Positions 10,207 through 59,245 of a DNA stretch of 64,000 nucleotides are shown here, piece by piece. Each line of letters opens with the position of its first letter. The stretch's first letter is position 1. Made by a program: the position numbers and the translations under genes. The DNA comes from Octopus vulgaris (lineage: Eukaryota), in NCBI GenBank assembly GCA_951406725.2, contig OX597828.1, positions 66,402,001 through 66,466,000 of the forward strand, read 5' to 3'. The notes under the pieces were generated by a model. The model saw only the letters and a program-made list of their open reading frames with translations, was not told the DNA's origin and searched no databases.

Positions 10207-10488
10207 ACGGAGATGTACTTGCATAGCAAGTGACCTGATTTGAGATCGTGTGCTGGAACGAAAACAACTGCAGCGTGGAAAGTGTTTATAAGCCATTTAA
10301 GAAACCCACAAAAACCGTTAGATTCACTTCAACATTCAAATTTAATTTGCCAAAATAATATTTTCGTTGCTTTGAGACCACAACCTACCTGTTCACTGAC
10401 AAAATTCCGTGCTGCAATGTTGAAGTGAATCTAATGGTTTTTGTGTGTTTCTTAAATGGCTTATAAACACCTTCCACGCTGCAATTGT

Positions 10489-10490
<2 letters not shown>
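10207..10490 (-). mobile_element. Hammerhead-bearing short repeat family HA, with ~72-bp inverted duplication, in (TA)n
   Basis: 10207-10416 matches 56356-56558. Inverted arms at ~10265-10336 and ~10416-10490. Confidence 0.75.
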
Positions 10491-10541
<51 letters not shown>

Positions 10542-10918
10542 TATATACATATATAGGCATATATACTTATATATGTATGTTTGTGTGTGTGTATGAAAAC
10601 ATGCATATATTTCTGTGAGTGTCTGTGTATGTGTGCTTTTCTCACTGTTTATATGCATAGAAACATAAAGTTAGTGAGAAAATAATAAAGATAAGAGATA
10701 AGGTTGTAAAAATAAAATGGGAAGAAAGAGAGTCTATTAGATTAATAAAGGGTGATAGATAGAGAAGAGAGGAAGTGAAAGGAAAATGAGAAAATGAATT
10801 AGAAATGTAGAGGTAAACTAAATGAAGGGAGAAAATGAAACTAAATGAAATATGCATTTGTGCATGTGAATCTATGTATATGCATGTGTGTGCGTGTGTG
10901 AGTGTATTTGTGAGTATA

Positions 10919-10996
<78 letters not shown>

Positions 10997-11000
<4 letters not shown>

Positions 11001-11405
11001 AGCTGGCAGAAACGTTAGCACGCCGGGCAAAATGCTTAGCAGTATTTTGTCTGCTGCTACGTTCTGAGTTCAAATTCCGCCGAAGTCGACTTTGCCTTTC
11101 ATCCTTTCGGGGTCGATAAATTAAGTACCAGTTACGCACTGGGGTCGATATAATCGACTTAATCTGTTTGACTGTCTTGTTTGTCCTCTCTGTGTTTAGC
11201 CCCTTGTGGGTAGTAAAGAAATAGGTATTTCGTCTGCTGCTACGTGCTGAGTTCAAATTCCGCCGAGGTTGACTTTGCCTTTCATCCATTCGGGGTCGAT
11301 TAAATAAGTACCAGTTATGCAATGGGGTCGATATAATCGATTTAATCCGTTTGTCTGTCCTTGTTTGTCTTCTCCGTGTTTAGCCCCTTGTGGGTAGTAA
11401 AGAAA
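10997..11405 (+). mobile_element. SINE family A, head plus two tandem bodies
   Basis: GCGAGCTGGCAGAAACGTTAGCACGCCGGG head. ~183-bp unit repeated via junction AAAGAAATA|GGTATTTCGTCTG. Confidence 0.88.
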
Positions 11406-11458
11406 TTTATATATGTGTGTGCATATGTATATATGTATTTATGTATGTATGCATGTAC

Positions 11459-11493
<35 letters not shown>

Positions 11494-12034
11494 AACTGAT
11501 TTATACGTGCATGGCTAAACAGCTATAAAATAGATGAGGGAGCAGTTTGAATGAAAATATGTATGTGTGAGAAAATGAAAGATGGCGAGGGAAGTAGTTT
11601 ATGACAATAAACATAGCGATTTAAAGAGATATGGGGGACAAAGCAAACACTTCAAAGGTTATCCAATTAGTCTGTTTTGTTAATTAGATTGCAGATGATG
11701 CAATAATGGAATGTTCAACAATATGCTATTATTCATTCTCAGTTCATAGCTCGGTTGTCATAACAATACTTTATTTTACAGCAGTCTTTCCTTTATTACA
11801 ATATGAGATGATTAAATTTATTTTACATTTTTGCTTAATTTCCTGATTGGTTAAATTTGTTTTATTCAACTGTATTTTCTTTGTACTTTTAGGTTTCTGT
11901 TATTAATGCTATTGTCATTAAAACTAAAGGGATATAATTTCTCGCAAGAAACAGATTTCTGGTGTGCTATAATTGTTTCAATTGCAAAGAAGATTCGTAA
12001 ATGGCAGCAGATTTTAGAGTTAGGCCTGGCCTGC

Positions 12035-12580
12035 CACCCCATTGCTTATGATGATGAGTGTTCCAGTTGATTTAGTCAATGGAACAGCCTGCTCATGGAA
12101 TTAACCTGAAAGTGGATGAGCATTCCACAGACACACATACTTATTTCTTTACTACCCACAAAGGGCTAAACACAGAAAGGACAAACAGATTACGTTGATT
12201 ATATCGACCCCAGTGCGTAACTGGTACTTAATTTATCGACCCCGAAAGGATGAAAGGCAAAGTCAACCTCGGCAGAATTTGAACTCAGAACATAATGGCA
12301 GACGAAGTACGGCTATGCATTTCGCCTGGCGTACCAACGTTTCTGCCAGCTCGCCGCCTTATTAGGACTATAGACATGCATACCCTTAAAGTAGTTCTTA
12401 GGGATATTCAGCACAACACAGATTGTTACAAGGCCAGCCCTTCGAATTACAGATACAACTCATTCTTGCCAGCTGAGTGGACTGGAGCAATGTGAAATAA
12501 AGTGTCTTGTTCAAGGACACAATGTACTGCTATCCTTTCGATCATGAATGAATACCCTAAACACTAAGCCATGCACCTTC
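12035..12580 (-). mobile_element. tRNA/CORE-like SINE (family D) with a nested family-A SINE (12140-12361)
   Basis: Minus head GGTGCATGGCTTAGTG..TTGTGTCCTTGAACAAGACACTTTATTTCAC. The nested copy is flanked by similar AGACACACATAC / AGACATGCATAC. Confidence 0.7.
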
Positions 12581-13564
12581 AATTTTAGACTTATTTCCTG
12601 GGTATCGGACACTTATTTGATTTATTATAAATTGATCAGCATTTAAGCCATAAATATCTCAGCTGTAGTATTGTGGGCTTTGTAGAAGGCCTCTGCCTTA
12701 ATTTGAAAAGATTAATGTAGTTACAGGAGTGACATTAAGATGCTGAATGAATAAGATGAGTGGTGATTTGTTTTCAATTCATCCTCTGTTGTATGGAACA
12801 TGTTTGTTCCAAGGAAAGAAACTAACAAAATAATGTCAGAAAATTCTGCTCATATTAGTGATTTAGTTGGACAGCTTGAGTGACTTTATATAGATGGGAG
12901 AGAAAGAGATGGAGCAAGGTAGAGAAGGAGGGTGAGTGGTTTAATAAGTTCCACTCTTTTACAATTTAAAAAAAAAAAATAATACTTTAAAATACAGACA
13001 ATTCAAATATTTTGCTTAAATCCCAGCAACGGACCACTCTCAGATGCATCATCATTACATTAAATGTGTTTATGGGGGAAAAAATATTGAAAAACATCAA
13101 TATATATCAGAGTGGCAAAGAAATGAGGATAGTATAAGGTGGTCGTGAGATATGTTAAAGATAACAGCTAAATCACACACAAAAAATTTTCTTTTGTTGT
13201 GTGCATAATCGTATGAATTCCCATTTATAGAACACAAATTTGCAAGATTTTCTGAAACTTCCCAAAAATAAAAACAGTTATGAGGAGTTTATATGGAGTG
13301 CTTAAATCAGGTTTCTGTCCAAAACAAACTTTATTTTCTCATTGAATTTGAGCACCTTGAAGCACTCCAAGAGCTAGTAGTGTGGAACATTATCCTAAAC
13401 TGTCTTTTAGTCTATCCATCCAATGGCGAATTTCTTCTTTGTTATTTATATCTCATTTAATTAATATCATGTAATCAACACACAACAATTCCTCTTGATT
13501 TTTTGCATCCCTTTTGTTCCTCTAGTAATAGATTCTCTTTCTCAAGAAAGTTATACACTTCACC

Positions 13565-13840
13565 TGTTTTCATCATCATCTAACGTGTGCTTTTCATGTT
13601 GGCATTGGTCAAACGGTTTGACTGAAACTGGTAAGCCAGAGAGCTGCAACAGGGTCCAGTCTGTTTTAGCTTGGCTTCTATGGCTAGATGTCCTTCCTAA
13701 GACCAACCACTCCATAGAGTGTACTGGGTGTCTTTTATGTATCACTGACCCAGGTGCCTTTTATGTATCACTGACCCAGGTGCCTTTTATGTACCACTGG
13801 CATGGATGCCTTTTATGTGCCACCAGCATGAGTGCCTTGA
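13565..13840 (-). mobile_element. RTE family R 3' UTR fragment
   Basis: Reverse complement of the family R tail with repeated TTTTATGT..CACTG modules. Further fragments at 16455-16730(+), 16760-17190(-), 17636-17947(-), 18842-18935(-), 51170-51370(+), 57100-57500(-), 59725-60075(+), 60510-60815(+). Confidence 0.75.
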
Positions 13841-14083
13841 GGACAGTCAATAATTTCCAGAGTAATTGTAAGCATGTAATCACTGATGTCTCCTCTCTTT
13901 TTTTTTTCCCTTCCATATTAGCCCTGCCTTTTGTTTTGTCATCCATGTTGATGTTCCATTTTTCTATCCAATCAGTAAGAAACAATTGTACATCTCTCTC
14001 TGCATGTTTGTGAGATCTTTGAACCAGAATCCCTGAACACCACCACCTAGTCTAGAGGGTTTTCCATTTTGGTATTTTCTTAA

Positions 14084-14304
14084 CCCTTTAGTATTCAGAT
14101 TTTTTTTGTCAAAAATAATACTTATTGATTCATATTGTTTTCAATTAAACAAGCATTATTTTGTCATTTCAAAATTTTGATGATGTGATTGTTTATTTTT
14201 AGAATGATGTTGTTGGGTAGGTGTGAGGGACCAGATCTGGTTAGTTTGGATATAAAACATGCAGAATTATTTGGCCAGTTATGTCCAGTTTAAATGCTAA
14301 AGGG
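14084..14304. mobile_element. piggyBac-type MITE
   Basis: TTAA|CCCTTTAG ... CTAAAGGG|TTAA. Same family at 55078-55290 and, decayed, at ~24295-24505. Confidence 0.85.
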
Positions 14305-14339
14305 TTAAGCATTGCTTTTACTTACCCATCTGTAATATT

Positions 14340-15030
14340 TGTATTTTCTTGTTTTCATCTATTTCCCAATTCACTTTTAAATTTCCTTAACCAATCCACT
14401 TCCATGTTATGCTGAACTCCTTTACTCCAAATTTCTGACCAAGAGCTCCTTGCTGCTTCAGTATCTGTCACATCATTCCCCTGATGTTCATTCAGCTGTT
14501 GATAAAATTTCCTTTCATTGTTTCTGAAGAATCTCTTCTGCTGGCATTGGTTTATTCTTTGTTAGTATCTTTATTTATTATTTTTTTTTTGTTGATATTG
14601 ACTAAATCCTTTTGCCTTATCTCTTCTTAAACTGTAATTCTATTAGTCAAATGTTTCACTTTCTTTGGAACTCACTCATAAGTTTTCCTTCACCATCTTT
14701 CCATTTATTGCATTTATCCTTCCAGAATCTCTGTTGAGCTATTCAACTTAATTCTCAAGTCTCTGTTTCCACCATGGGTCTTTGCCCCTTGCTTTTTACT
14801 TGATCAAGAATTTCTGTGCAGTATAGAAGGTGATTTTAAAAAATCTATTATATTTTCACCATAGATTTTCATCAACAATTCAGTGATCTTCTTTACCATT
14901 TTATGTAGTTTTTTTCTCTTTTGATTCCATTCAAAAGCTGGTAATCGCTTTCTTTCACTAGTTTATGTCTCATTTAGCTGTTGTAGAAAGCTCCTTTCTT
15001 CCTCTGTAACATCCTTTCCTTCCATGAACT
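14340..15030 (-). pseudogene. R4/Dong-type LINE remnant, pre-RT region
   Basis: RY*QRINQCQQKRFFRNN..KFYQQLN...AARSSWSEIWSKGVQHNMEVDWL resembles the RY..R...QNxxF..QKxFY...FWxxIW...HN..AxWL motif. Confidence 0.6.
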
Positions 15031-15345
15031 AAAATTTGTTTTCATTTAGGTTGTTATTCCTCTCTTGATGATTTATTGATCTCTCCCTCTCCTCCTCTGC
15101 CTCATCATCGTCATCATCATCATCATCATCAGCAACAGTAACAGCATCCATTCTTTAATCCTTGAAATGCCAGTATCATATGTGACTGAAGCTTCTGAAC
15201 TTTTATGTGCTAGTTTTAAGTAGATGGATACAAGATTTGTTTAAGTGTGTCTTTTCAAGAATTGGCCTCAAGGAAGATAATTTTATGTTGTCAGATGCCA
15301 TGGTGGAACTATAGTGGATTTATGCACATACATACCTACATATAA

Positions 15346-15407
<62 letters not shown>

Positions 15408-17589
15408 ATGCATGCATGTATGTATGTATGTATGTATATGTATACACACATATATACACCTTCACACACATATATACATATATGGGAGTTGGGAAATGAT
15501 TGTGTTGTCTCCTATTTTTAAGTATATAACAGCATCATGCATATTTCACAATGCTTTGTTGCACAATTCTGTTACAATAAATATTGAGTCCTTTGTGACA
15601 ATCATTACTATATGTTCCAACTTTGTAGGGTCCCTATATAAATGTATCTCTAGCGTCTCAGTCCAAGTATTTATCTTATCAATACCAATAGGATTTGAAC
15701 TCTGGACTCAAAGAAAAAGTCAAGCTATTGCTAAGCAACAAATCAATACTGATGCATACGTGTACATGTATTGGCCATTTCCCCCCCTTGTATATTTGCT
15801 ATCAATCGAAGAGTACATTGCTTGATTGTCCTAAACTAAACATTAATTATTTATGATCCCTAAATCTATATAACTCCATTAATGAAGAGAGGCATGCTAA
15901 ATATTGATTGTTTAATTGTGTGTTAATGTTTATCTATTTTTATATGTAAATATGCATGAATGAGAATATCTGGATGAATGGGTAAATAAGAACATCAATT
16001 CTTTGTCAGTTTTCATGATAAATATTACAGTTGTTTGATCAGCTGAACTGCTGCCATTCAAATATGTTGTATGTAATTGAGTATTCATTTCAGCAACACA
16101 TGTAACCTCAATATACTCCTTAGATTACTCCAGAGGTAGAAACAGTAAGGCTGTGTATGACACAGCAGGCATTTTGAATTGCAAGTACAGCCTAATTGAC
16201 AGGCTGTCACAGTTTCTGACCCCCACCCCACCCAACAACCAGTTACATCCCCAAGGCCTAGGTGAACCTGAAGTAAATGACACATGCCGAAGCTACCACA
16301 CAGTGGGATCAGATCTTGGGCTTCAGGATTGCAAAGTAAAATTCTTAACCACTTGGTCATCATACACACATGTATGGCTGTGTGAGTATACACACATAAG
16401 CGTATATACTTATACACAAACATGTGTGGGTGTTTATAAGTATATATCGCCTTACTGGCAGCTGTGCTGGTGGCATGTGTAAAAAGATTTGAACGAGATC
16501 ATTGCCAGTACCGCCTGACTGGCCCCGTGCCGGTGGCACATAAAAAGCACCTGCTACACTCTCAGAGTGGTTGGCGTTAGGAAGGGCATCCAGCTGTAGA
16601 AACTCTGCCAGATCAAGATTGGAGCCTGGTGCGGCCGTCTGGATCGCCAGCCCTCAGTGAAAATCATCCAACCCATGCTAGCATGAAAAGCGGACGTTAA
16701 CCAATGATGATGATGATGATGATGATGATGATATCAACATCATCATCATCATCATCATCATCACCAGCAGCAGTATTTAATGTCCATTTCTTATGGTGAC
16801 ATGGATTTGAGAGTTTAACAGGATCCAGCAAACTGCAAAGACTGTGTTGAGCTCAAGTGTCATATTTGGTGTGTTTTCACCAGCTGGATGATCTTCCATT
16901 TGCCAAACACTTTACAGAGTATATCAAGTGCTTTTTCATGCTAAGGGCATTAGTTAAAGTTGCTGTGTGAAACTTGCAAGCCAGAAAAAGAACGTGGAAA
17001 AAGAAGAAGAGGGTAGAATTTGAGAGGGGAAGTTGACAGTGGTGTAAGAGCCAACTCTCAAGGAGCAAGAAGGAAGCATAAGAGAGGTCATAGAGGGTAA
17101 TGAGAGGGGAGGAGAGAAAGACAGAGCAGGTACTTTCAAATGGCTGTGGGGTAGAGGTGAAGCACAGAGAGTTCAAGTTGGAGGTAGACATAAATAAGAT
17201 ATCTATCTATCTCTATGTGTGTGTGTGTGTTTTGTTTAACACACATACACAAGGTATGTGTGTTCAATTTCATATATATATATATATATATACATATCTT
17301 ACATATAATTAAATGCAATGTGTGTCCTGTCGGTCAATTTTGGAAGAAAGATGAGTATCAAATGGAGTGGGAGTGAGTGAGAGTCAGAGGAAGTAAAGCA
17401 TGCAAACAACCTTCAAAAATTTTGCTCTCAACAATGCTGCCATGTTAATCAAAGTGAAACTGCAAATTTCTATCACGAATTGCATTTACTTTATCAGTTA
17501 CACACACATACATATATAAGTGTTCAATATTTAATATCATTTAGATATTTGTGTGTGTGTGTGTGTGTGTGTATACATATATATGTATG

Positions 17590-17636
<47 letters not shown>

Positions 17637-17947
17637 CATCATCATCATCATCATCATCGTTTAACGTCCGCTTTCCATGCTAGCATGGGTTGGACGGGGG
17701 TCTGGCAAGCCCGAAGGCTGCACCAGGCCAGTCAGATCTGGCAGTGTTTCTACAGCTGGATGCCCTTCCTAACGCCAACCACTCCAAGAGTGTAGTGGGT
17801 GATCTTATGTGCCACCGACACAGGTGCCAGACGAGGCTAGCAGACGGCCACGCTCGGATGGTGTTTTTTATGTGCCACCGACACAGGTGCCAGACGAGGC
17901 TGGCTGACGGCCACGCTCGGATGGTGTTTTCTTATGTGTCACCGACA

Positions 17948-18128
17948 ATATATATATATATATAAATATATGTGCATATATATATATATATATAAATATA
18001 TATATGTGCATATATATATATATATAAATATATATATGTGCATATATATATATATATATGTGCATATATATATATATATATAATATATATATGTGCATAT
18101 ATATATATATATAAATATATATATGTGC

Positions 18129-18159
<31 letters not shown>

Positions 18160-18293
18160 AATATATATATACATATATATACATATATATATACATATAT
18201 ATATAAATATATATATACATATATATACATATATATATACATATATATACATATATATATACATATATATACATATATATACATACATACATT

Positions 18294-18360
<67 letters not shown>
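17948..18360. repeat. Compound (TA)n microsatellite with AAATATATATATGTGC higher-order unit
   Basis: Directly visible. Confidence 0.95.
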
Positions 18361-18361
<1 letters not shown>

Positions 18362-18757
18362 TAGCAGTATCACCCGGCGTTGCTCAGATTTGTAAGGGAA
18401 ATAACTATATAAGCATTTTTAGAGAGTTATAGCAAAAAAATAGCAAAAAAATGCATTAAAAATGTAAAAAAAAATATGGTAAATTTTTTTTAAATCGTTG
18501 ACTCATTGCAGACATTTTTAGAGAGTTACTTCCCTTATATAATAGCGAAAAAATGCATTAAAATGGAAAAAAATTATGGTAAATTTTTTTTTAAATCGTA
18601 GACTCACCGTAGACGCGCGCTAATACCCAGAAGGGCTTGATATGAATCACGACTATAATATACCCGCTTTTGGTTAAACTGCACCGCAAAATGTGGGAGT
18701 AGTTAGGAATCTAAATCGTAGGAGACAGACACACAACTTCTCTTTTATGTATAAAGA
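18361..18757 (-). mobile_element. Non-autonomous Helitron
   Basis: On minus: a|TCTTTAT... 5' end, subterminal GAGCAACGCCGGG hairpin remnant, CTAG|t 3' end. AT target, no TSD. Confidence 0.8.
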
Positions 18758-18776
18758 TATGTATGTATGTACGTAC

Positions 18777-18969: not shown

Positions 18970-19427
18970 CAATGCATCCCGGCGGTGCCCGGGTGTTATG
19001 ACCTACAAGTGCATTGTATTATTTGCTCCTTTCTTATGGGCAGAATCGGCACAGCTGATATATAGTTAATGGAATAATGGAAGTTATTTTTTGTTTAATA
19101 GTGAAGGACTGTTTCAGTCATTAGACTGCAGACATGCTCTATAGAATTTTAGTCATATGAAGTCTGGAACTTATTCTACAGGTGTCTTTTGCCAAGCCAC
19201 TAGGATATGGGAACATAAACACACCTAATACTAGTTGTCAGGTAAGTGATAGGAAACAAACACAGGCACAAAGACACACACATACATACTAGGGGCTTCT
19301 TTTAATTTAATTTCTGTCTTCCAAATCCACTCACAAGGCTTTTGGTTGGCCCAAGAGTATAGTGGAAAACACTTGGTCCAAAGAACCCAGACCCGTGTGG
19401 TTGGGCAGCAAACATCTTACCACACAT

Positions 19428-19842
19428 ATGTCTTTATTACCCACAAGGGGCCAAACATAGAGGGGACAAACAAGGACAGACAAATGGATTAAGTCGATTA
19501 CATCGACCCCAGTGCGTAACTGGTACTGAATTTATCGACCTCGGAAGGATGACTGGCAAAGTCGACCTCGGTGGGATTTGAAGTCAGACCGTAAAGACAG
19601 ACGAAATACCTATTTCTTTACTACCCACAAGGGGCTAAACATAGAGGGGACAAACAAGGACAGACAAACGGATTAATTCGATTACATCGACCCCAGTGCA
19701 TAAGTGGTACTTATTTAATCGACCCCGAAAGGATGAAGGGCAAAGTCGACCTTGGTGGAATTTGAACTCAGAATGTAACGGCAGACGAAATATGGCTACG
19801 CATTTCGCCCAGCGTGCTAACGTTTCTGCCAGGTCGCCACCT
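19428..19842 (-). mobile_element. SINE family A dimer nested in SINE family B
   Basis: Two tandem bodies, flanked by duplicated CTTACCACACA. Confidence 0.85.
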
Positions 19843-21630: not shown

Positions 21631-23356
21631 TTTATTAAAGTGAAGTAGTTTCATATGTTCAGATTGTTTCCCTGTCATTTATCATGTATTAAACAGAGAT
21701 CATTTCTTGTATTGTCAAAAAGAAAGGTCACTCAACCCCTTTGTTTAAACATTTATTTGCAGCTCTCCTTACAAATTTTTGTTTTATTTTGCTTTGTTCT
21801 CAACATTCTTGCCTTAGATATTGTTACTAACTTTAATTATACATTAATTCCTCCCACATTGTACAACACCTACCTTTCAGCATCACGCCTCCACTCCATT
21901 AAAAATTTAAGCAATAAAAATCTATAGAGAATGGCATTAAAATGGTAAGAGAAGCAGTTGGACATATTAAAATGTCACATCAAATGTGTGTGTGTGTGTG
22001 TGTGAGCATGTGTGTGTGTGCATGCGCATGTGTGTGTGCACGTGCATGTGCGTGCGTGTTTGTGTGTGTGTGTAATTTGTTGCATTCAAAGTAATAAAAT
22101 AACTGTTAGTTTTTTTTTTATGCAGAACATCACCACTTTCCTTGGATTTTACTGTTTTACTATTTGGTGTGGACTTCTCGCCTGTTTCTGCGGCTGTTGG
22201 ATTTAACTACAAATACATCCAGTGTAGTTATTCACAATGACTAGAAAGCGGCGGCAATCAAGTGGAAGTGAAAGGCAGTAGTGCCAAAAGAACAAAAAAA
22301 TGTTATGGATTGATGACATCAAAGCTAAAATTCTTCAATATAGTGAATGTCTGCTTACTAGCAAGATACATCTTCTTTCATATACTGTCTCTCCTAAGGA
22401 CAACTGTTGCTTCTCCACTTGTTTTAAAGATGCCAATACAATGCCTTTCAAAGGCAGTGAGCTGGAAGAATCGTTATCACATTGGGCAAAATGCTTAATG
22501 GCATTTCGTCCACCTTTACGTTCTGAGTTCAAATTCCGCCAAGGCTGACTTTACCTTTCTCCTTTCAGGGTCAATAAAGTAAGTACCAATTAAAATTAAA
22601 ATTAAAAAATATTTTTGTTGTTTTTGTAAAATCTTAGAAAATATTTAAAAATTCACATTTTTTGTCAAATTATTTTGTTATATTTGTCTATCTATCCAAC
22701 TGTAGACATTTAAAATATTTCACTAACTTTTTCTTATAACTTGGCAAAAGGGTACATTTTTTCTCAAAAATTGCTAAATTTGTTCCCACAGTCTTCTTTA
22801 TCCACAAACAGAATCGTAAACTTTCTCTTGAAAATATTTCAAACTAGTCAAATTCCGCCAAGGCTGACTTTACCTTTCATCCTTTCAGGGTTAATAAAGT
22901 AAGTACCAGTAGAGCACTGGGGTTGATGCAATCAACTGACTCACTGCCTTCAAAATTGCTGGCCTTGTGCCAAAATTCGAAACCAATGTCATGCCTTTCT
23001 TATCATGTGTTATCATTGAGACTGAAACACCTAAAGAAGCATAAATATGTTAAGCCTTAGAGAAATAAATCATTTACACTGTTTACAGATTGCACATGGA
23101 AGTGAACATGTTCCACAAGTAACTTGGTCATCTCCATTTTCAACTGCAAAATACTTCTTTTTAAGTTTACATCCACAAAAGAAAAGAAAACAACTGTGCA
23201 GGTCATTAGGTAGGTGGGAGCTTAAATTTGACTATGACCGACCGTAAAGCTCTTTTTTGATCCTAGAGTGTACTAGAAGTCCTGGTATTCCTCTATTTTG
23301 TAAAGCATGTATTATATATATTGGCCTTTTAAATATAAGTATAATTAAAAATTCAA

Positions 23357-23545
23357 AACTATTGAAAAGGTTGCAAGACGCAATGAAAATTTTAGGAAAA
23401 TAAAAATAAGTAAAAAGTGGAAATTTTACCAGTGAGTGTGTTATATCATAAGGCACAAAAAGAAAATTACCCTCCCCAGATACAATAGAATATGCTGCAA
23501 CACACAAACTCATATAAAGAACCTTGCAAACCAAATCAAAAAATG
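23357..23545 (+). mobile_element. Hammerhead-bearing short repeat family HB
   Basis: Starts ACTATTGAAAAGGTTGCAAGACGCAA. ~190 bp shared with 54935-55070 and 59054-59245. Confidence 0.75.
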
Positions 23546-23785
23546 AAATATCATTAAAAAATTTGCTAAATAGATGTAATTTTTCATGCTGAATTAGATT
23601 TTGTTATTCATTTGCTCTAGAAAAATTTTTTGAAAAATGTTGTTACAGAGGTTTAAAGTTTGAGCCACAAGCTTTTTAATTCAAGAACATGTGCTGAATC
23701 AAAGTGAAGAGAATTCAATATGTAAAGTATGGCAATTTGTTGAAAATGAGATACTGTAATTTGATGTCATTTTCTGTATATCACA

Positions 23786-29059: not shown

Positions 29060-29570
29060 ACCCCACGAGCCCCGCCTCGCCACTGATACCTGAGTTACAT
29101 ACTGTGTCGCATTCACGAGGTTCCATCCACACGCAACATCCGTGCTACATTCTTCCATCGATCTTCAAACATTCTTCACAGTCAGGCATTTTCTCTCTAG
29201 CCCTATTTTCCTTTTAAGGTGAAAGGTGAAGTAATTCACCAATTCAGGGCCAGAGATGAAATTGCCTGACTCTAACCCTTTCAGCCTCGTCTTCCAAATT
29301 ACCTCTCTCGCAATTGCTACTACAATGAGAAAACAATTCTTACCTTCTTTCGAAAGGAAATCAGGCGAGTCAGTTTTTACAATAGACTCAGTCGACAGCT
29401 GTACTCTTCGTGCACTTGACAACAGTTGTTCAGCATAAACCCACACATCTGACACCCCCGAACTTTGAACAATAGCATGCGGGACGGTTTCCCTATCCCG
29501 CTCGCATCTTGGACAGGTCAAAAGGCCGTGGCCACCATGCCTTGTGAGCTTGTCCCAAACAGTAATTTGG
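29060..29570 (-). pseudogene. L1/Tx1-clade LINE ORF2 C-terminal remnant (zf-RVT)
   Basis: TCPRCERDRETVPHAIVQ..AREVIWKTRLKG..FHLKRKIGLERKCL, paralogous to 4010-4650. Confidence 0.75.
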
Positions 29571-30469
29571 GTATGAGAACCTAATTATTTCCCCTTTAAT
29601 TTTTATTTATTTTTTTAAACACCCTATACCGAAAGATTACCAAATCAAGAATCAATTCAGTAAATTATTTCAGGTGTATTCTGTACATTGGAATTCGATC
29701 CAGAGAGTTAAAAATCTATCTTTAGACTTACCTATATAAATTGGCCGGCAATAAAATGTAATTGAAACAAAAATGATTTTTTGTCAATTCTTTTAAAATG
29801 AGTTTTTTTTTGTTTTTATTTAGATTTCTGAGTTTTCATTGAAATCCACAAGGTGTGGGCTGCCCGTTATCTGTTTTCAACTTGACCTTTATAATTTCTT
29901 TTTTTTTTTCGGTAAAATATAGATACGGAAGGGAAATGGTTTTCCATCAATAACACTGGATACTAATGTCGAATCCAAGAGATAAATGGCACTAATACGG
30001 TACCTTTATTTTATAAGTACATACATTACGTCAGATAGTTTCATTTTATTTTCATTTTGTATAACTTAACTGAAAGATTAGATAATTTTCGCAAGTATAT
30101 TATGAACCTATTCTATAGAGCTTAGCTACAATGAAGTGAATTCAGTTTCAAAGATTATAATATGGACTCAACACAGCGGGAGCTTAATTTATTATTCAGC
30201 GGTATTTGTCATAACGATATTAACTTCACAGAGATTTTCAAGCATAAAGCCACATTTTGAAGAGGAAATGCATTGTACGAACTAAGAAACCGCAACCAAC
30301 TATTGTAAAGTATTTAGTTCGGTACTTTATCATTTTGTCTCTTTTAGATATCTGGTGTAAAGCTAGGTTTGTACTGGGTTTCGGGCTAAATTGGACACTT
30401 TGCATAAAAGAAAACAATTTCACATCCCAAAAATAAAAGTATTTAAAACAATATTAACTAGATTATGAC

Positions 30470-32289: not shown

Positions 32290-32885
32290 AGACATTTCTA
32301 CCAACGTAGTTAGGAGCTTCCTGTCGTTAATAAAGAAACATTTCCCTAAAGCCCATAAGTATTACAACTCTTCAACCCCCATAGCGTCAAGGTAAGCTAC
32401 TCCTGCTTAGACAACATTGCACGCATCAACAGACGTAAAAGCGCACCCACACAACCCCCAACCCCAACCTGAAACTTCTGAAACCCTACCACCTGCCCTC
32501 TTGGAGGATCCTGCCTCTCAAGGGCTATAGTATACAGAGCCACCTTTCACCATCAGATGGTATTACTAGGCACTACACGAGTATGACAGTAAATAATTTC
32601 AAGGGAAGACATTCTCATCACTTGCATTCATTTAGATCCAGGGACAGAGAGAGAACTTCACCTGCCTGTCACGCTTTCTCTGGAGACTTCGTGACCTTCG
32701 AGACGAAACACCTAGCATCAAGTGGACTATTATCGGCAGGGTGCCACCATATTCATCCGGCGCCGCTAATTGCCGGCTGTGCCTCCGCGAAAAACTACAT
32801 ATCATCTACCAACCCGCACTATCCATCAGCAAGAAATATGAGGTATCATATTGCTGTCACCCTTCTGATAAATTTCAAGCCACTA
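32290..32885 (+). pseudogene. Penelope-like element remnant (Naiad-like): thumb, Zn finger and GIY-YIG endonuclease
   Basis: STNVVRSFLSLIKKHFP..LFNPHSVKVSYSCLDNI; CPLGGSCLSRAIVYRAT; YTSMTVNNFKGRHSHHLHSFR; IKWTIIGRVPPYSSGAANCRLCLREKLHI. Several frameshifts. Confidence 0.82.
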
Positions 32886-33231
32886 GCCGCCGACAACCCA
32901 GATATGTCTCCTTTGTACCAGCCATTCCTAGCACCGCCTTTACCAATTAAACCCCATGGACAGCATCGCAAATCATCGACGCCTAGTACTTCCCCACGCC
33001 TGTCTATGCGCATACTCTCACCCCTTGTGCACGACCACACGAGTGTATGTGTGCGTGCACACGCACGTGCGTAAGAATATTCTTTCTTCTTCTTCTTCTT
33101 ATTATTATTAGCGGGTGATTGCCGAATATTCTTACTACAAATAAATAGCTGTCAAGTACTGGAGGCGATGTAATTGACTAATTCCTTCCTCTTAAAATTG
33201 CTAGTCTTGTGCCAAAATCCGAAACTGTTAT

Positions 33232-36044: not shown

Positions 36045-36730
36045 GCCCAGGTGTATACAATCATGTATACAAGAGAAAGATGACGTCTATGGACCATTGA
36101 TAAGGAGTTTACAAATCCAGTACCCAAGATACACTTTCAGTTTCATACCCATTATCATCGGAACAACAGGATACATACCTATTTCTTTACTACCCACAAG
36201 GGGCTAAACACAGAGAGGACAAACAAAGACAGACAAATGGATTAAGTCGATTATATCGACCCCAGTGCGTAACTGGTACTTACTTAATCGACCCCGAAAG
36301 GATGAAAGGCAAAGTCGACCTAGTCGGAATTTGAACTCAGAACGTAAAGACAGACGAAATACCTATTTCTTTATTACCCACAAGGGGCTAAACATAGAGG
36401 GGACAAACATGGACAGACATAGGTATTAAGTCGATTATATCGACCCCAGTGCGTAACTGGTACTTAATTTATCGACCCCGAAAGGATGAAAGGCAAAGTC
36501 GACCTCGGCGGAATTTGAACTCGGAACGTAAAGACAGACGAAATACTGCTACGCATTTCGCCCGGCGTGCTAACGTTTCTCCCATTAGACATACCAACCC
36601 ATAGGAGCAAAGACTGGCTGAACTCGGAATATTGGAGAGAGAGTGCCAATCCTTAATTCATAAGTTATAGATGATCACGATATCTGGAACTATAAAAATT
36701 GCAAGACCTTCTTAAGATTCAAAGGATGAT
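36045..36730 (+). pseudogene. R4/Dong-type LINE 3' end (RLE region) split by a SINE
   Basis: EKDDVYGPLIRSLQIQYPRYTFSFIPIIIGTTGYIP [SINE] ..LAELG..SLIHKL*MITISGTIK..CKTFL. Confidence 0.7.
36175..36580 (-). mobile_element. SINE family A dimer
   Basis: Two ~182-bp bodies with the same junction. Flanking ACATACC duplicated (36173-79, 36589-95). Confidence 0.88.
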
Positions 36731-37287: not shown

Positions 37288-37617
37288 GTCCGAAAACATA
37301 AATCCGAAAAAAGAAGCACACAGAATAAATTATAGAGCAGTATATATTAAAGTTAGATAAGGCTGGTTTAAGGGATTACCTTAGGTTTCACGCCCATAGA
37401 GAGCTTAGCTTTATGACGTATCATTAGATCCCAAAACCTGTTGGCTGAACGCCTCTCTAGTATATATGGAGAGATACACTGTTGCATATTACATATTATA
37501 GAGAGGCCTTCAGTCAACCGGTTTTGGGATCTGATGATACGTCATAAAGCTAAGCCCTCCATGGACGGGAAACCTAAGGTAAACCCATATACCGATCTAT
37601 TCTAACTTTAATATATA
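37288..37617. mobile_element. Fold-back element family HC with hammerhead motifs on both strands (copy 1)
   Basis: ~135-bp inverted arms. Plus motif 37526-37586, minus motif 37372-37432. Embedded in (TA)n. Confidence 0.8.
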
Positions 37618-38287: not shown

Positions 38288-38600
38288 GTATTAAACATAA
38301 ATTCGGAGAGGCACACTCTAAATTGTAGAGCAGTATATATTTTAATAGGGAAAGCCGGCTTATGGGATTACCGTGGATTTCCCGTCCGTAAAGGGTTTAT
38401 CTTTATGGCGTATCGTCAGACCCCAAAAATCTGTTGGCCTATGACCTCTTCAAAATATGGAGAGGGGAGGGGTCCACCTCCATATATTGAAGAGGTTTTA
38501 GGCCAACGGGTTTTTGGGATCTGACGATACGCCATAAAGCTAAACCCTTCATGGACGGGAAGCCCACCGTAAACTGGTCTACTCCATTAATATAATATAA
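38288..38600. mobile_element. Fold-back element family HC (copy 2)
   Basis: Same architecture. Minus motif 38364-38424, plus motif 38516-38575. Confidence 0.8.
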
Positions 38601-48062: not shown

Positions 48063-48063
48063 G

Positions 48064-51439: not shown

Positions 51440-54040
51440 TCAGACCATCTCTATGGTCATCTGTATAATGAAAGCAATATGAGATATCAAATTGTTGGAC
51501 AGAATCATAAAAGTTATGGAAAGAATTATAGACCATTTTATTAGGAAAATTAAACTAGATGAGATGTACTTTAGTTTTATGCCAAGGTGAGGTGTTACTG
51601 ATGCCCTCTTGTAAATCAACTGCTAAAAATGAACCATTGAACTTGGCATTTGTTGATCTGGAGAAAGCTTTCACTCACTAACCTGGTAATCCCTGAGAAA
51701 GCTATGGGTAGATGAATAGCTTGTGGTAGCCATAGAAGCTATGTACAGAGGTGCTGTTGATAAGAATCTAGTGTACGAATAAGTGTTCAGTTCTCAGTCT
51801 CCTTTTTATCTTAGTTCTCCAGACCATATCAGAACAATTCAAGACTGGTTGCCTTTGGGAACCACTATATGCTGATGGCCTTGTTCTTAGTGCAGAATCT
51901 ATAGTAGAATTAGAAAAGAATTTCCAGGTGTGGAAGCAAAACCTGGAAGGAAAGCGTTTTTTAAGTAAACTTAGCAAAGACCCAAGTTCTAGTAATCAGG
52001 CAAACTGACAAGTCTCTACTCCTATCAAGAAAATAGCCCTGTTTGAAGTGTAGTAGTAATGTAAGTAGAAATTCCACATGGTGTACTCAATGCAAACTAT
52101 GGCCATATAAGAGGTGTAGTGGAATCATAGAAAGCTTGACTGAGAAAGTAAAATTTCTTTGTGCTTGTGGTAGAAGTGCGGGGGTGGGGCAATAAACACT
52201 AAGAATACACAGGAAATGGATTTTCTTAAATGGTCAGGAGGTCCCCAAGATGTAGTAGATAGCTTTTGTTATTTACGTGCCCTAATTAGCAGTGGAGGGG
52301 AATGTTCTGAAAGTATCATTGCTAAAATAAGAACAGGATGGAGAAAGTTCAAGAGCTGTTACCTCTGTTAGCAACAGTCTCTCTCCCTCTGAGAGAAAGG
52401 AAGATTGTATGATGCTTGTGTATGAACAGCAATGCTACATGGTGGTGAGACATGGGCCTCAATTGCAAATGCAGTTGGTATGTTCTGTTGAATATGTGAC
52501 ATCAGTGGGCATGTACAACAAATACAAATATGTTGAGAGAAATATTGGGCATAAGAGGAATCAGATGTAGTGTACTAGAGAGAAGACTACAATAGTTTTG
52601 TCGTGATGCATATGGATGAAGACAGCTGCTGTCCTCATCCTTATTCAAGTGTTGTTTGCTAAATGTGGATGGAACTTGTAGAAGAGGAAGACCCAAGTAA
52701 ACAGGATGATCTGGTGAAGACTTATATCAAGATGCTGAAGGCGGCGAGCTGGCAGAAACGGTAGCACGCCGGGCGAAATGCGTAGCTGTATTTCGTCTGT
52801 CGTTATGTTCCGAGGTCAACTTTGCCTTTCATCCTTTCGTGGTCGATAAATTAAGTACCAGTTACGCACTGAGGTCGATGTAATTGACTTAATCCCTTTG
52901 TCTGTCCTTGTTTGTCCCCTCTGTGTTTAGCCCCTTGTGCGTAGTAAAAGAAAAAATATATATATATCAAGATGCTGAGTGTCATAAAGATGAAAACAAG
53001 GTCCTAAAAGCATTATATTTATCTCACTGCCCTTGTCCCCACTGTCCCCATCAAACCTTTCCCACCTCTCATCTTCCTTACATCCACCCTTCTAACTTTG
53101 CCACTATTCAGCTGCTATAAGTATTAGAGCAGGACATGCACATATTTCATCCCCCTTTCCTGGGAACCACTTTTGAAATTCATCCCTTCCTGTTTTATTA
53201 TTTACCACTGATCACCCTTTTCTGTTATTCTCATCACTTTGGCATATCTGTTGTCAGTGACCTCCTCCCAAACTTTGTCCCCCACCCCCACCCCACTATA
53301 ATAATTTCTACATACCTATGACACCCATCTTTGTTACTGTGTCTCTCCCAATTGCACATCTACAAATTTTCAGATCTGCCTGCAAGTTTATTATACTGCT
53401 GCTCTCCTTTTTGCACTGCCACTCGTCACCTCCTTCATCCCGATCCACCCTTATTCTTTAATCACCCCAAACCATCCATGTGTGCTATACTGATATATTT
53501 ATCACTGATCACACCCTATCCTTATACTATTCACTTCTTCATACATCACTGACCTCTGTCACTCTCACATTGTGATTAATTTGTGTACCCACCCCTTCCT
53601 AATTCTTTATATTTTCTCTCATACTCACCTTCTTATATCTTGCCAGGATACTTTAATACCTTCTCACCACTCTGTCTTCTTTTCCACCCACTCTTATATA
53701 ACATAGCAATGACCTTCCTCTCTAGCAAGACACCTATGCCTGTTTCTCTATCATACTTTAACTTCTCGACACCTGGCATAAAGCCACCTTCCTTTCTACT
53801 ACAACCCCATTCATATGAGGGTCTTTTCTTTGTTTCGAAAATTACTTGGCAACCTCACAAGTACCAATGGCTTGAAAAAGCCCCTGATACACTGTAAAGC
53901 GGTTGGCATTGAGAATGGCATCCAGTTGTAGAAACTATGCCAAAACAGACATTGGAACTCAATGCAGTCCTGCTCATTGGATCCTGTCAAACTGTCCACT
54001 CCATGCCAGCTTTTAAGATAGATGTTAAATGATATGAAGG
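51440..54040 (+). mobile_element. Older RTE LINE copy (RT with PHD-like insert, long pyrimidine-rich 3' region), interrupted by SINE A at 52739-52955
   Basis: LAFVDLEKAF; PLYADGLVL; PCLKCSSNVSRNSTWCTQCKLW..KRCSG; tail GGCATCCAGTTGTAGAAAC near 53920. Confidence 0.8.
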
Positions 54041-54781
54041 TGATATATAACCATTGTAGAAGACACTTTCTGTATTTTTCTCAACCCAAATTCTCATTTA
54101 CACATCTATATTTGTGCCTTCATTCTAATGTTGCATTACAGCTGTTGACTTCCAATAAATGTATGATAAGTAATTTTACATTTAGAGTTTTGTTAATTAT
54201 TGACAGGATTTTCTTTCCAAAGAAGCACAACCCATAAATAGTTTTGTTACTTTACCTTTCTCTATTCCACAAAACTTATTTTATTTAAGTTTAGATCATG
54301 TTTTTGTGCTCCAGTGACAGCTGCAAATAGTTGTATTTGTATGCTGTAATTAGATAAGTTCTGGTTTTTTATTGCTTTAATTTAAACTGGCACAATTATA
54401 ATGTTACCAACTGTCATGGTAGCACTTTTACAATTTTTGTAGTTTTTAACTTACTCTTTTTTTCAGTAAGTAATTTTGTTCAAGAAATGCTAAAAGTGAA
54501 TAATTGATGATTATAGTCTGTCATGTAGGAAAATTCATAATTTAGAAAATCATTAACTCTAGCCAACTTATTTCAGTTAAAAAATTTTTAAGTAGAAATT
54601 TGAGTTTCATAATTTGTTGGAAAGCTGATAGAAACTGAAGACTAAGAAAGTAACCATACCACATGTTCAAGTTTCTTTTCTCTGATTTGTAGCTTAACCA
54701 TTAATCATTATTTCATATGTTAAAAGCAATTATAATGATAATGTTGATAAGGAGATATTTTCCACATAATAAGGTGTTTAA

Positions 54782-55070
54782 CCTTTTTTGATTTGGTTTG
54801 CAAGATTCTTTATATGAGTTCGTGTGTTGAAGCATATTCTATTGTCTGGGGAGAGTCATTTTCTTTTTGTGCCTTATTATGTAACACACTCACCGGTAAA
54901 ATTTCCACTTTTTTCTTATTTTTATTTTCCTAAAACTATTGAAAAGGTTGCAAGACGCAACGAAAAATTTTAGGAAAATAAAAATAAGAAAAAAGTGGGA
55001 ATTTTACCAGTGAGTGTGTTACATAATAAGGCACAAAAAGAAAATTACTTTCCCCAGACACAATAGAATG
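54782..55070. mobile_element. Family HB fold-back copy
   Basis: Left arm (54782-54935) is the reverse complement of the sequence downstream of the hammerhead motif (54936-54973). Confidence 0.8.
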
Positions 55071-55077
55071 TGTTTAA

Positions 55078-55290
55078 CCCTTTAGTATTTAATGTGGCCA
55101 TATCCACCCAAAATTTCCTACCTGTTCTATGTTCAAACTGGCCAGATCTAGCCTCTCACATCTACCCTACAATGTCATAAAAATAAACACCATCCATCAA
55201 AATCTTGAATCTATAATATAACGCAGGATTAATTCAGCAACGTGAAGAAATAAGCATTATATTTGACAGAATAATCTGAATCCTAAAGGG
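55078..55290. mobile_element. piggyBac-type MITE
   Basis: TTAA|CCCTTTAG ... CTAAAGGG|TTAA. Confidence 0.85.
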
Positions 55291-56355
55291 TTAAAATATA
55301 TATTTTCTTTGTAAACTTTTCTCAAAAGAGTATGTTAATAAAAATCTTTTAACAGGAGTATTGTCAAAAATGTATGAAATTAGTATATAGATTGGTGTTA
55401 GGTTTCACTTCATAAAAGTTTGACTTTTACTCTGCAAACTCAACTTCATCTGCAAAATTGGGGAAAATTTCTAAGTTATATTATTTGCATAGAATTTTTT
55501 TGGAGTGATTTTATGAAAGATCTATGAGTGGCTGTGTGGTAAGTAGCTTGCTTACTAACCACATGGTTCCAGGATCATTCCCACTGCGTGGCACCTTGGG
55601 CAAGTGTCTTCTACTATAGCCTCAGGCCGACCAAAGCCTTGTGAGGTGATTTGGTAGACGGAAACTGAAAGAAGCCCATCGTGTATATGTATATATGTAT
55701 GTGTCTGTCCTCCCAACATTGCTTGACAACCGATGCTGGTGTGCTTACATCCCCCGTAACTTAGCGGTTCGGCAAAAGAGACCGATAGAATAAGTACTAG
55801 GCTTGTAAAGAATAAGTCCTGGGGTCGATTTGCTCGACTAAAGGCGGTGCTCCAGCATGGCCACAGTCAAATGACTGAAGCAAGTAAAGGAGTAAAGTGG
55901 TTTGTGCTTAAACACAAGTCTATAGCTTATAAATGAAAATTCATTTAATTAAACTATACTTTATTGAAATTTTGAGCACTTATTTATGAAACTATATATA
56001 GAAATCTTGATGTTTATTGTTTTATCCTGGATATTAAGAGATGTCAATGTAAAGAGTTTGGATATAAAGAATTGTTTTGTTTTTGAGACTCCATTACGCT
56101 ATCCAGTTAATATCAACAGCTAAATTCTTAGGAATAAAAGTATGGTTGCTATGCTTCTATTCCAAGATGTTTCTTAATTTTTTCCCTAAGTTAAATAGCT
56201 ATTGTGTTTGTTGCTGACATTTTGTACCACAAACAATTAGTTGCTGTGTAGGAGACAGAAACTGATAGATGTGGAAAGTCCAGTGGACATTTAAAGCATT
56301 TTGTATAGTTGCTAAAGTAAAAGCTTTTGTTTTATAGCTTATACTGTTTTAATTA

Positions 56356-56558
56356 CGGAGATGTACTTGCATAGCAAGTGACTTGATCTGAGATTGTGTG
56401 CTGGAACGTAAACAATTGCAGCGTGGAAGGTGTTTATAAGCCATTTAAGAAACACACAAAACCGTTAGATTCACTTCAACATTTAAATTTAATTTGTCAA
56501 AATATTTTCGTCACTTTGAGACCGAGACCTGTTCACTGACAAAGCTTCGTGCTGCATT
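56356..56558 (-). mobile_element. Family HA monomer with 11-bp TSD
   Basis: Flanked by TGTTTTAATTA at 56345-55 and 56559-69. Confidence 0.8.
56493..56543 (-). ncRNA. Putative minimal type-I hammerhead ribozyme, G3-C8 core variant
   Basis: UUUGUCA-GUGAACA-G-GUCUC GGUCUCAAA GUGAC-GAAA-AUAU-UU-UGACAAA. 7-bp stem I, palindromic stem III. Confidence 0.6.
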
Positions 56559-59053
56559 TGTTTTAATTATCCTTTAATTAATCTGTCTTATTTAACATAC
56601 CTTACCAATTCTTCAATTTAAAAAAAGAGGAAAAAAGGGAGTTCCTGAGTGAATGTACCTCAATTGTCTTGGATTCCTTGATTTTTTTTCTAAAAACATA
56701 ACATGTACAATTCTAAATGGTTAATCGATTTCTATTCTTGCCTTTTTGTATTGTATCTTAAATCCCTTTATTGACTTTGCTTTTATTTTTTTCTTTCTTT
56801 CTTTTCTTTTTCCTTGTCTATAGAAATAATTTGTTTCGAAAATATTGATTTCAATGAATGAATGCTCCGATCTTGTTCAAACAGTTTACTGATTAGGAGC
56901 TGTTCTAAACATACACACATTTGCACTTCTTTGTAAATAAGTCCTTTTTAGTCATTTGTGACAGCAATGATATGGATAATTGATGAAAAGGGTTAAAAAA
57001 TATGTTGATTAAAAATGTTGAGAGTTAGCAAGAACAGGGTAGCCAGAGCAGAAAGCGAGGAAAGGAGAATTTTGAGCACAATCATGAGATCATAGTAAAT
57101 TCATCATTGTTTAATGTCTGCTTTCCATGGGTTGGACGTATGACTGAGGGCTGGCGAACCAGATGGCTGCACCAGGCTTCAATCTTGATCTGGCAGAGTT
57201 TCTACAGCTGGATGACCTTCCTAATGCCAACCACTCCGAGAGTGTAGTGGGTGCTTTTACGTGCCACCGGCATGGAGGCCAGATAGCTGCTCTGGCAACG
57301 ATCAGGCTTGGATGGTGCTCTTAATACCCTACTAGCACGGGGCTCAAGTGCCAGTAATGCAACGCTGGTAACGATCACGCTCGAATGGTGTCTTTTATGT
57401 GCCACTGGCATGGAAGCTGGTTAGCCACTCTGTCAATGATCACACTCGTATGGTGCTCTTTGCACCCCGCTAGCACGAACGCCAGTCATTGAATTTGATT
57501 TTGAATTATGAAACAAAATTCTTGACAAGTTGACCTACCATGGAAAAGAGATGATGAAATGATTCATGATGCAAAACATCTTTTCCAAAATCTAGATTAT
57601 TGATCACTATATTTATTCATATTTCTATAATGCATACGCTTCTCTTCTTAAATAGCCATGGCTATTTAAATATCTAAAGGGTTTTTTTTTTTTTTTGGAA
57701 AAAAAGATTAAAGGAATATTTCTGTGGTTTCTTTATTTTATTATGTTTTCTTCTCTTGTTATTAATTGCTTTTAACTTCTTTCAACTTATTTACTAACAT
57801 TTTTTCATCCTCCTCCTTTACCTTTCTAACCTCTCCTACTAACACCATTACCCTGTTGTCTTACTATACTTTTTTATATTTATTTATTTTAACAAAGCCA
57901 CCAGGCATGGCTGTGTGGTAAGAAGCTTGCCTCCCAGCCACATGGTTTCAAGTTCAGTCCCACTGTGTGGCACCTTGGGCAAATGTCTTCTACTTTAGCC
58001 TTGGGCTGACCAAAGCCTTGTGAGTGAATTTGGTATTCGGAAACTGATAGAAGCCCGTTGTATATGTGTGTGTGTGTGTGTGTGTGTGCGCGCGCATGTA
58101 TATAAATATATATACATTGCCAGATCAGACTGGGCCTGGTGCAGCCTCCATGGCTTACCAGACCCCGGTCGAACCGTCCAACCCATGCTAGCATGGAAAG
58201 TGGACGCTAAACGATGATGATATATATATAATCATCATCATCCGTTTTCCATGCTAGCATGGTTGGACGATCCAACCAGGGTCTGGGAAGCCAGGAGGCT
58301 GCACCAGGCTCCAGTCTGATCTGGCAATGTTTCTACGGCTGGATGCCCTTCCTAACACCAACCACTCCGTGAGTGTAGTGGGTGCCTTTTACGTGCCACT
58401 AGCACAGGGGATATATATATATTTATGTGTGTCTTTGTGTCTGTTTTGGTGTCCCCCTCCCTCCCATAACTTAGTGGTTTGGCTAAATAGACCGATAGAG
58501 TAAGTACCAGATTTAAAATATAAGTCCTGGGGCTGATTCATTTGACTAAAATTTTAAGGCAGTGCCCCAGCATGGCCACAGTCTAATGACTGAAAACAAG
58601 TCAAAGATAAAAGTGATATTTTGAAGCGTTACAGTACATATCCTACCTTTGCCTGACTCAACTGGAAAGGTAAACAGATTATCATTGAATAATTAGGATT
58701 GAGAAATAGACCCAAATATAAAAAGTACTTGGTCTTGCAATTTATGTGAGAATCAGTGAACACCTCTGTGGTTGTTTAACCTGCTAGAAATAGTTGTTAA
58801 ATTTCCCTTATTTACCCTACCATCTTCAAAAATAAGAAAAGACATGTTGGTTAATCCGGTTCTGGATATAGAAAATAATGGGGGCATGGCTTGAATGCCT
58901 TTAACCATTTTGTTACTATATTTATTTTGAGATGTTCTGTGTTTCTCTCAATTATTTTAGATATAACAAAGAATTTAGTAAAGTAACTTAGTTATCATTA
59001 AGCTAGTGTTAGGAACATTAATTGTGACTAAAGTTTAGTGGAAGATTTTAATG

Positions 59054-59245
59054 ACTATTGAAAAGGTTGCAAGACGCAACAAAAATTTTAGGAAAATGAA
59101 AATAAGAAATAAGTGGAAATTTTACTGGTGTGTGTGTGTTACATTATAAGGCACAAAAAGAAAATGACTCTCCCCAGACACAGCAGAACATGCTTCAACA
59201 CACGAACTCACATAAAGAATCTTGCAAACCAAATCCAAAAACGAA
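59054..59245 (+). mobile_element. Family HB copy nested in a piggyBac-like MITE (~58905-59320)
   Basis: Same ACTATTGAAAAGG start, with G12 lost by a CpG-type transition. Host has TTAA|CCATTTTGTTAC ... GTAACAAAAGTG|TTAA. Confidence 0.7.

Follow-up and report, generated by a model that had tools for sequence, protein, structure and literature searches.

Predicted minimal hammerheads with a variable 3:8 pair in pseudo-long terminal repeats of Penelope-like elements of Octopus vulgaris

Penelope-like elements (PLEs) of metazoans carry minimal type I hammerhead ribozymes (min-HHRs) in their pseudo-long terminal repeats (pLTRs). The accessible part of the survey by Cervera and de la Pena (2014, PMC4209133) includes natural U3-A8 pairs in the Cercyon PLEs of Schistosoma (about 1,300 matches) and one U3·G8 motif, from Saccoglossus, in its Fig. 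S3. For PAc, a Poseidon element of Anolis, the available portion of Frangieh et al. (2024, PMC11167929) describes unprocessed RNA as the main template, cleavage that needs protein, and an engineered C3G/G8C swap that is partly active; the role of the hammerhead in endonuclease-bearing PLEs is called an open question in the consulted part of Craig et al. (2021, PMC8557442). As monomers, published min-HHRs show no activity, and their dimers are only weakly active. Small dimer-cleaving hammerhead variants with a diminished stem III and an association with PLEs have reportedly been described by Lünse, Weinberg and Breaker. Here, we analyze a 64,000-nucleotide stretch of the Octopus vulgaris genome (the window; contig OX597828.1 of assembly GCA_951406725.2, positions 66,402,001 to 66,466,000), in which an initial annotation had pointed to hammerhead folds in three short repeat families, HA, HB, and HC. 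These repeats are very probably PLE pLTRs with a predicted minimal type I hammerhead, likely a weak and conditional ribozyme, and their short copies likely derive from copying of capped, uncut transcripts by reverse transcriptase (RT).

Hammerhead folds and their link to Penelope-like elements

Both strands of the window were scanned for the three core motifs. The core types that the initial annotation had located (two HA, three HB, and three HC, the last as CUGAYGA) are all present, with an additional decayed fourth HC core (Table 1). A base-pair-aware descriptor yielded three matches in the window versus 0 to 1 (mean, 0.2) in 30 dinucleotide shuffles; it requires UH and base pairing at 3:8 in addition to stems I and II and a stem III that is self-complementary. 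On genome copies it recovered 28/30 HA, 28/30 HB, and only 2/30 HC copies. Searches of the genome DNA (2.8 Gb) returned 2261 HA, 1753 HB, and 1143 HC first-look candidates, 40 of which were scored for each family, and 30 loci per family were taken for the family majorities. The HA/HB scaffold pattern with G or U at position 3 had 11,014 matches genome-wide and 1 in the control, and therefore the hammerhead folds are real and not due to chance; these matches are copies of a few sources rather than independent events. Raw HA counts are inflated by about 900, since one passenger HA insertion, arranged head-to-head, rides in a larger young repeat present at about 900 sites (L389 to L396; e.g., G000:C1:5023300-5024700). 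An apparent fold-back HA subfamily, comprising about 48 of the first 100 matches listed, was rejected as this one insertion inside the larger repeat, its flanks being common to 8/8 copies.

No hammerhead was among the 150 listed of the 254 Rfam matches in the window, and an Rfam search with an intact HA copy gave no hammerhead match at E ≤ 10. Because of the latter result, standard searches can miss hammerheads of the HA/HB type. More than 10,000 motifs in the O. vulgaris genome are missed by CUGANGA descriptors and Rfam.

In the HA majority, stem I is 7 bp and stem II 5 bp long, the extra nucleotide is G, stem III is a palindromic AAUAUU, and position 17 is U. The HB majority likewise has the extra G, a stem II of 5 bp, and U17; its stem I is 3 bp long and its stem III is AAUU. 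HC had been assigned the same layout and departs from it: its stem II is long and bulged, its extra nucleotide is U, an A·G mismatch occupies 10.1-11.1, stem I is extended, and stem III is a hairpin of 3 bp with a 3-nt loop, not a palindrome. By following divergent matches we found older relatives, namely, HD, HE, HF, and an older HB set; stem III is again self-complementary (AAUU) in HD and a near-palindrome in HE and HF. In all eight majorities of the HA/HB clade and in the HC majority, U4 G5 A6, A9, G12 A13 A14, A15.1-U16.1, and H17 are fixed, and within the HA/HB clade the extra G after A9, G10.1-C11.1, and U16.1-U17 are also constant. Stems I and II vary by compensated pairs across the eight subfamily majorities, and flank identity between lineages falls to 0.44 to 0.58. 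In an alignment of 12 chosen copies, one stem II pair was changed on both sides (C-G/U-A); that alignment misplaced stem I, which was therefore not counted there, and kinship inflates the scores.

Position 17 avoids Watson-Crick pairing with position 3 (G3/U17 in HA, U3/U17 in HB, C3/A17 in HC), a pattern that would be expected, going by the excerpted text of PMC3884650, were a 3-17 trap harmful. In HB, the bases at the start of the repeat are predicted to pair about 100 nt downstream with the start-codon region, closing a domain around the ribozyme. This long-range helix is weak (z, −0.2; L051:1498-1645 and the window HB copies) and could possibly act in translation control; a similar helix is predicted in HA. 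Further minimal hammerheads with canonical C3-G8 cores and other stems were seen in the 598 kb of fetched loci (flanks of L062, L165, L016, L123, and L132), and thus more PLE families are present.

The HA, HB, and HC copies are solo or head-to-head pLTR fragments of PLEs. A physical link to Penelope open reading frames (ORFs), chosen beforehand as the point on which this assignment could fail, was found for all three families, whose longer copies lead into GIY-YIG ORFs. For HC, 4/30 loci have the end of a GIY-YIG-like endonuclease encoded upstream, with the stop about 130 to 150 nt before the core and matches to Atlas GIY-YIG clusters at 0.93 to 0.95; the ORF evidence for this family consists of the endonuclease end only. 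For HB, a query built from the shared upstream sequence gave 30 loci, five of which contain RT or endonuclease fragments in the same orientation (at one locus, Pfam GIY-YIG at 23 bits, with a cutoff of 22.6). The HA upstream pattern had 1,054 matches (control, 0), and ORF ends (Atlas score, 0.97) were found in 5/30 of these loci and in 4/6 regions hand-picked for paired matches. In broken HA and HB copies, YVDD-bearing fragments lie ahead of the GIY-YIG part. An inverted partner adjoins 14/30 HA, 15/30 HB, and 10/30 HC copies, a few of these being low-complexity artefacts, and the breakpoints of the inverted arms differ from copy to copy.

The repeats of HA and HB include, downstream of the ribozyme, the first ~30 codons of the ORF, and an LPR N terminus is common to HA, HB, HD, HE, and HF. 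Over 182 amino acids (aa), 47% of residues are identical between the HA-linked and HB-linked proteins. As the two share this level of ORF identity, the same scaffold, and the same first codons, they are distant relatives within one clade and not independent families; thus, the description of the families as unrelated in sequence did not survive for HA and HB, the flanks of which are near background in identity (0.54 to 0.58 versus a shuffle mean of 0.47 and maximum of 0.54). The linker reads CX3CxxC in HA-linked and CX4CxxC in HB-linked ORFs. A CX2-5CxxC linker between RT and endonuclease is given in the relevant passages of PMC8557442 as a feature of Neptune, and also of Nematis, and by this linker we provisionally place HA and HB as Neptune type. 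With regard to the initial annotation's broader picture of a diversified set of Penelope-mobilized RNAs that CUGANGA searches miss, the Penelope link and the lack of Rfam detection held up, while the families are not three independent ones and are not retrozyme-like tandem RNAs.

A PLE remnant in the window itself, at 32300-32950 (+), is a broken C-terminal piece of another PLE family with 10,369 candidates genome-wide; across 54 aa it shares 31% identity with the endonuclease linked to HC. It was rejected as a parent of HA or HB, and no sense-strand hammerhead lies within 1.5 kb in 30 related loci. A 3.45-kb direct HA repeat (L181) proved to be a local duplication without an ORF.

The 3:8 pair within the HA/HB clade

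The 3:8 pair is Watson-Crick in HA and HD (G-C), HB (U-A), and HC (C-G) and non-Watson-Crick in an older HB subfamily and HE (U·G) and in HF (C·A). By eye, the first 100 of the 11,014 scaffold matches comprise 54 G-C, 42 U-A, and 4 others. HD has G3-C8 in 13 of the 22 rows kept (of 25). The first 100 of 257 matches of the older HB set include 71 U-A and 21 U·G, and its AAGAA-loop subfamily (n = 36) has 24 U·G, 7 U-A, 4 C-G, and 1 other. HE (n = 25, with one pair duplicate) has 12 U·G, 7 C·A, 3 C-G, and 3 others, and C3·A8 is found in 24/30 HF loci; a pattern designed for HE/HF was too strict, returning only 5 matches. In the 12 chosen copies, the counts are G-C 5, U-A 3, U·G 2, and other 2. 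The downstream sequences of HE and HF are 99% identical, so both single-step intermediates between C-G and U-A are present as sister subfamilies. Hence, the 3:8 pair of the HA/HB clade is not always Watson-Crick, and subfamilies with U·G and C·A have been amplified. The covariation reported for C-G, G-C, and U-A is real between lineages, although only a handful of evolutionary events underlie it, with U·G and C·A among the states along the way.

C or A at position 3 occurs on the HA/HB scaffold in 511 matches, mostly single-change decay, and C3-G8 in 21. These 21 were considered as a canonical ancestral subfamily and the idea was dropped after a check with patterns open at positions 3 and 8, many being single changes from the U3·G8 subfamily. 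In a tree built from 123 flank columns, HB, HE/HF, and HA plus HD form separate groups. We put forward, tentatively, that one PLE clade walked its 3:8 pair through G-C, U-A, U·G, and C·A in amplifying sources, with a natural high-copy G3-C8 hammerhead, wobble intermediates, and a genomic cap signature (described below) marking uncut RNA as the in vivo template.

G3-C8 is favored by biochemistry, since it was the only rescuing swap in a full double-mutant scan of another hammerhead (PMC9901934). We regard measurable cleavage as likely for G3-C8 forms, as slightly more likely than not for U3-A8 forms, and as doubtful for the U·G and C·A forms.

Copy boundaries, the template, and alternative explanations

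The 3' ends of the copies are bimodal, at +93 to +102 (18/30) or +156 to +160 (9/30) in HB and at +76 to +91 (11/30) or +143 and beyond (19/30) in HA. The two sites are homologous between HA and HB, and the first is where most inverted arms start. Among HB 5' ends, 22/30 lie 30 to 46 nt before the predicted cut, 7 lie inside the ribozyme, and none lies at the cut; in two cases, a pair of these copies forms the two halves of one palindrome. In HA, the start of short copies lies at an initiator-like site, 60 nt ahead of the predicted cut. The start sample consisted of the first 100 of 305 matches, i.e., 23 long and 77 short copies. By eye, a G directly precedes the start in 51/77 short copies and a C occupies that place in 22/23 long copies. 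The excess of G in short copies is significant even if 30% G is assumed (p = 6e-11), and the extra G often directly follows an unrelated (AT)n flank. No upstream exon common to the short copies was seen in the start sample. An extra 5' G from reverse transcription of the cap is a signature of long and short interspersed nuclear element (LINE and SINE) insertions; we read the G of short HA copies in the same way. Because HA copies start 60 nt before the cut, mostly with this extra G, a capped and uncut RNA was likely the usual template of short copies, which agrees with the normal in vitro insertion of ribozyme mutants of the Anolis PLE and with the need of its cleavage for protein (PMC11167929). 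A cap G in PLEs was not found in the open-licence literature; with the extra 5' G, the templates of PLEs could be deduced from genome sequence.

We hypothesize that transcription by RNA polymerase II would begin in HA at the initiator-like site, 60 nt ahead of the cut site, and that the RT of the element would start at one of the two internal sites, run back through the uncut ribozyme to the cap, and add the G. Cutting would require a second copy, engaged through the self-complementary stem III, and/or the protein of the element, and may serve to process tandem transcripts.

Several observations weigh against this interpretation. The extra G is not evident in HB (4/14, by eye), some of the HA G's could stem from microhomology of inverted arms or from GA repeats, and the HA start resembles a 3' splice site (branch point, pyrimidine run, and AG; L151 to L180, upstream of the HA start), with the intron of Drosophila virilis Penelope ending at helix I. 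The RT part is weakly supported by Pfam (E, 0.053), and the fetched loci did not yield an intact full-length element. Conservation of the core does not exceed that of the flanks within families, which is as expected for dead copies and gives no support. The lowest-energy fold of HA in context is an alternative one, HB stem I has only 3 bp, and unconstrained cofolding of HA did not give the double-hammerhead fold, the nearest-neighbor models used being devoid of core contacts. The tree is short and poorly resolved, so that it establishes neither the order of the 3:8 changes nor the ancestral state. Finally, cleavage of the HA, HB, and HC hammerheads is a prediction, and the double-mutant scan speaks against the forms with U·G or C·A.

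This last point keeps alive a less probable but serious alternative, in which the repeats have the same PLE origin but the fold of the HA/HB clade no longer cuts and is kept as a structural element (for protein binding, RT start-site folding, or translation control), with the 3:8 pair drifting under relaxed catalysis. Amplified subfamilies with U3·G8 (24/36 in older HB; 12/25 in HE) and C3·A8 (24/30) and 5' ends without a pileup at the cut site are in keeping with such a relic, as are ribozyme-dead Anolis PLE mutants that insert normally in vitro and Naiad PLEs that thrive without canonical hammerheads, both as described in the consulted parts of PMC11167929 and PMC8557442, respectively. It fits poorly with the constancy of G12, A13, A14, U4, G5, A6, A9, and U16.1-U17 across lineages with background-level flanks and with the exact Watson-Crick swaps in two lineages, of which G3-C8 takes two transversions and is the activity-rescuing swap (PMC9901934).

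Two further explanations bear on the arrangement of the copies. Non-LTR retrozymes, i.e., tandem non-coding units that self-cleave, circularize, and are copied by a PLE enzyme in trans, would likewise be short, non-coding-looking, and present in thousands of copies with a type I hammerhead, and they have been argued to derive from PLE pLTRs (10.64898/2026.07.22.740005). They are nevertheless very unlikely here, given that tandem arrays are absent at the window sites of HA, HB, and HC, that the copies occur singly or head-to-head and run into PLE ORFs, and that copy ends are not set by the cut site. Fold-back DNA elements resembling miniature inverted-repeat transposable elements, or AT-rich repeats with a chance hammerhead-like pattern, are hardly credible: the long inverted arms around several window copies, the AT richness, and the short HB stems would suit them, but the arm breakpoints are variable, the ORF links largely refute them, and control patterns gave 0 to 1 matches versus 11,014, with compensatory changes in stems I and II.

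Returning to the reading as PLE pLTRs with conditional ribozymes, the HA/HB clade supplies matched natural alleles on one scaffold that could probe whether cutting matters. If the U·G and C·A forms were amplified despite being dead, the elements can do without cutting in vivo; if these forms do cleave with the help of the element's protein, the core is more tolerant than in vitro scans suggest, and the hammerhead core consensus and the search descriptors derived from it are too narrow.

Copies in the window and comparison with known systems

Inspection of each hammerhead revealed disabling changes in most of the nine window copies (Table 1). The window HA copy with its core at 56536 folds no better than shuffles (z, −0.01), compared with a z of −2.5 for a near-majority HA copy.

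Table 1. Positions and preservation of hammerhead-bearing repeat copies in the window
Feature	Position	Strand	Hammerhead	Other	Basis
HA copy, solo pLTR fragment of putative Neptune-type PLE	56351..56556	−	56543-56493; core GUGAACA 56536-56530, G3-C8; predicted cut after 56500	ORF's first 31 codons, from 56444	Core-motif scan and family comparison
HA copy, decayed hammerhead	10207..10416	−	Core GUGAACA 10396-10390	Two short duplications, after core and in stem III	
Inverted 5'-truncated partner (head-to-head arm) of HA copy 10207..10416	10416..10489	+			
HB copy, solo pLTR fragment	23355..23549	+	23359-23395; core UUGAAAA 23362-23368, U3-A8	Decayed ORF start near 23466	
HB copy	54932..55072	+	54936-54973; core 54939-54945	Stem III with one extra A	
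Inverted partner arm of HB copy 54932..55072	54784..54935	−			
HB copy	59054..59247	+	Core UUGAAAA at 59058	G12 lost (GAAA to AAAA); first ORF codons intact, from 59164	
HC head-to-head pair	37341..37617	Both	Cores 37427-37421 (−), 37531-37537 (+, C3-G8)	G5 lost in − core	
HC head-to-head pair, pLTR of second PLE group	38293..38574	Both	Cores 38419-38413 (−), 38521-38527 (+)	− copy best preserved; + copy decayed (A15.1 and stem I' lost)	

Other repeats in the window include a Tc1/mariner transposase remnant at 7249-8244 (−; Pfam HTH_Tnp_Tc3_2, E 1e-19), in which a CUGACGA at 8061 was rejected as a hammerhead. A 184-bp unit forms two-copy tandems at 10998-11406, 19421-19831, and 36174-36584; it is a dispersed SINE-like repeat and has no match to the hammerhead descriptor. 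Fragments of non-LTR retrotransposons with weak zf-RVT matches lie at 4350-4718 and 29165-29584 (−).

Natural G3-C8, C3·A8, or octopus hammerhead families were not found in the open-licence literature, a scope that does not extend to the work of Lünse et al. Natural U3-A8 covariation is also reported by Perreault et al. (2011, PMC3088659), whose core-variant section, within the text available, names no natural G3-C8.

Among described systems, HA and HB resemble the Neptune-type PLEs (Craig et al. 2021, PMC8557442; Arkhipova et al. 2013, PMC3846280; accessible portions of both) in the RT, the cysteine linker, and the C-terminal GIY-YIG; in a pLTR that includes the first codons, an inverted 5' partner, and an optional tail; and in an initiator-like site and microsatellite targets. 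They differ in the longer tail (about 55 to 60 nt versus 30 to 40 nt), the noncanonical ribozyme core, and a microsatellite-rich 3' untranslated region of about 0.5 to 1.1 kb. With PAc, so far as the portion of PMC11167929 at hand describes it, HA and HB share two presumed internal RT start sites inside the ORF start and the tail, and unprocessed RNA is likewise the likely main template; PAc is naturally C3-G8, whereas HA is naturally G3-C8 and bears a genomic trace in the form of the extra 5' G. With the min-HHRs of metazoan PLE pLTRs, as covered by the accessible part of PMC4209133, they have in common the type I topology, the extra nucleotide between 9 and 10.1, G10.1-C11.1, the palindromic stem III, and copies that are mostly solo or in inverted pairs; G3-C8, C3·A8, and a cephalopod row were not seen in that part, and in the octopus genome four states of the 3:8 pair occur within one homologous clade. 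Minimal hammerheads in PLE pLTRs, natural U3-A8, and one natural U3·G8 row were thus already known, and what the octopus elements add is a set of natural alleles that differ at a catalytic tertiary pair and belong to one clade, together with a genomic trace of the template.

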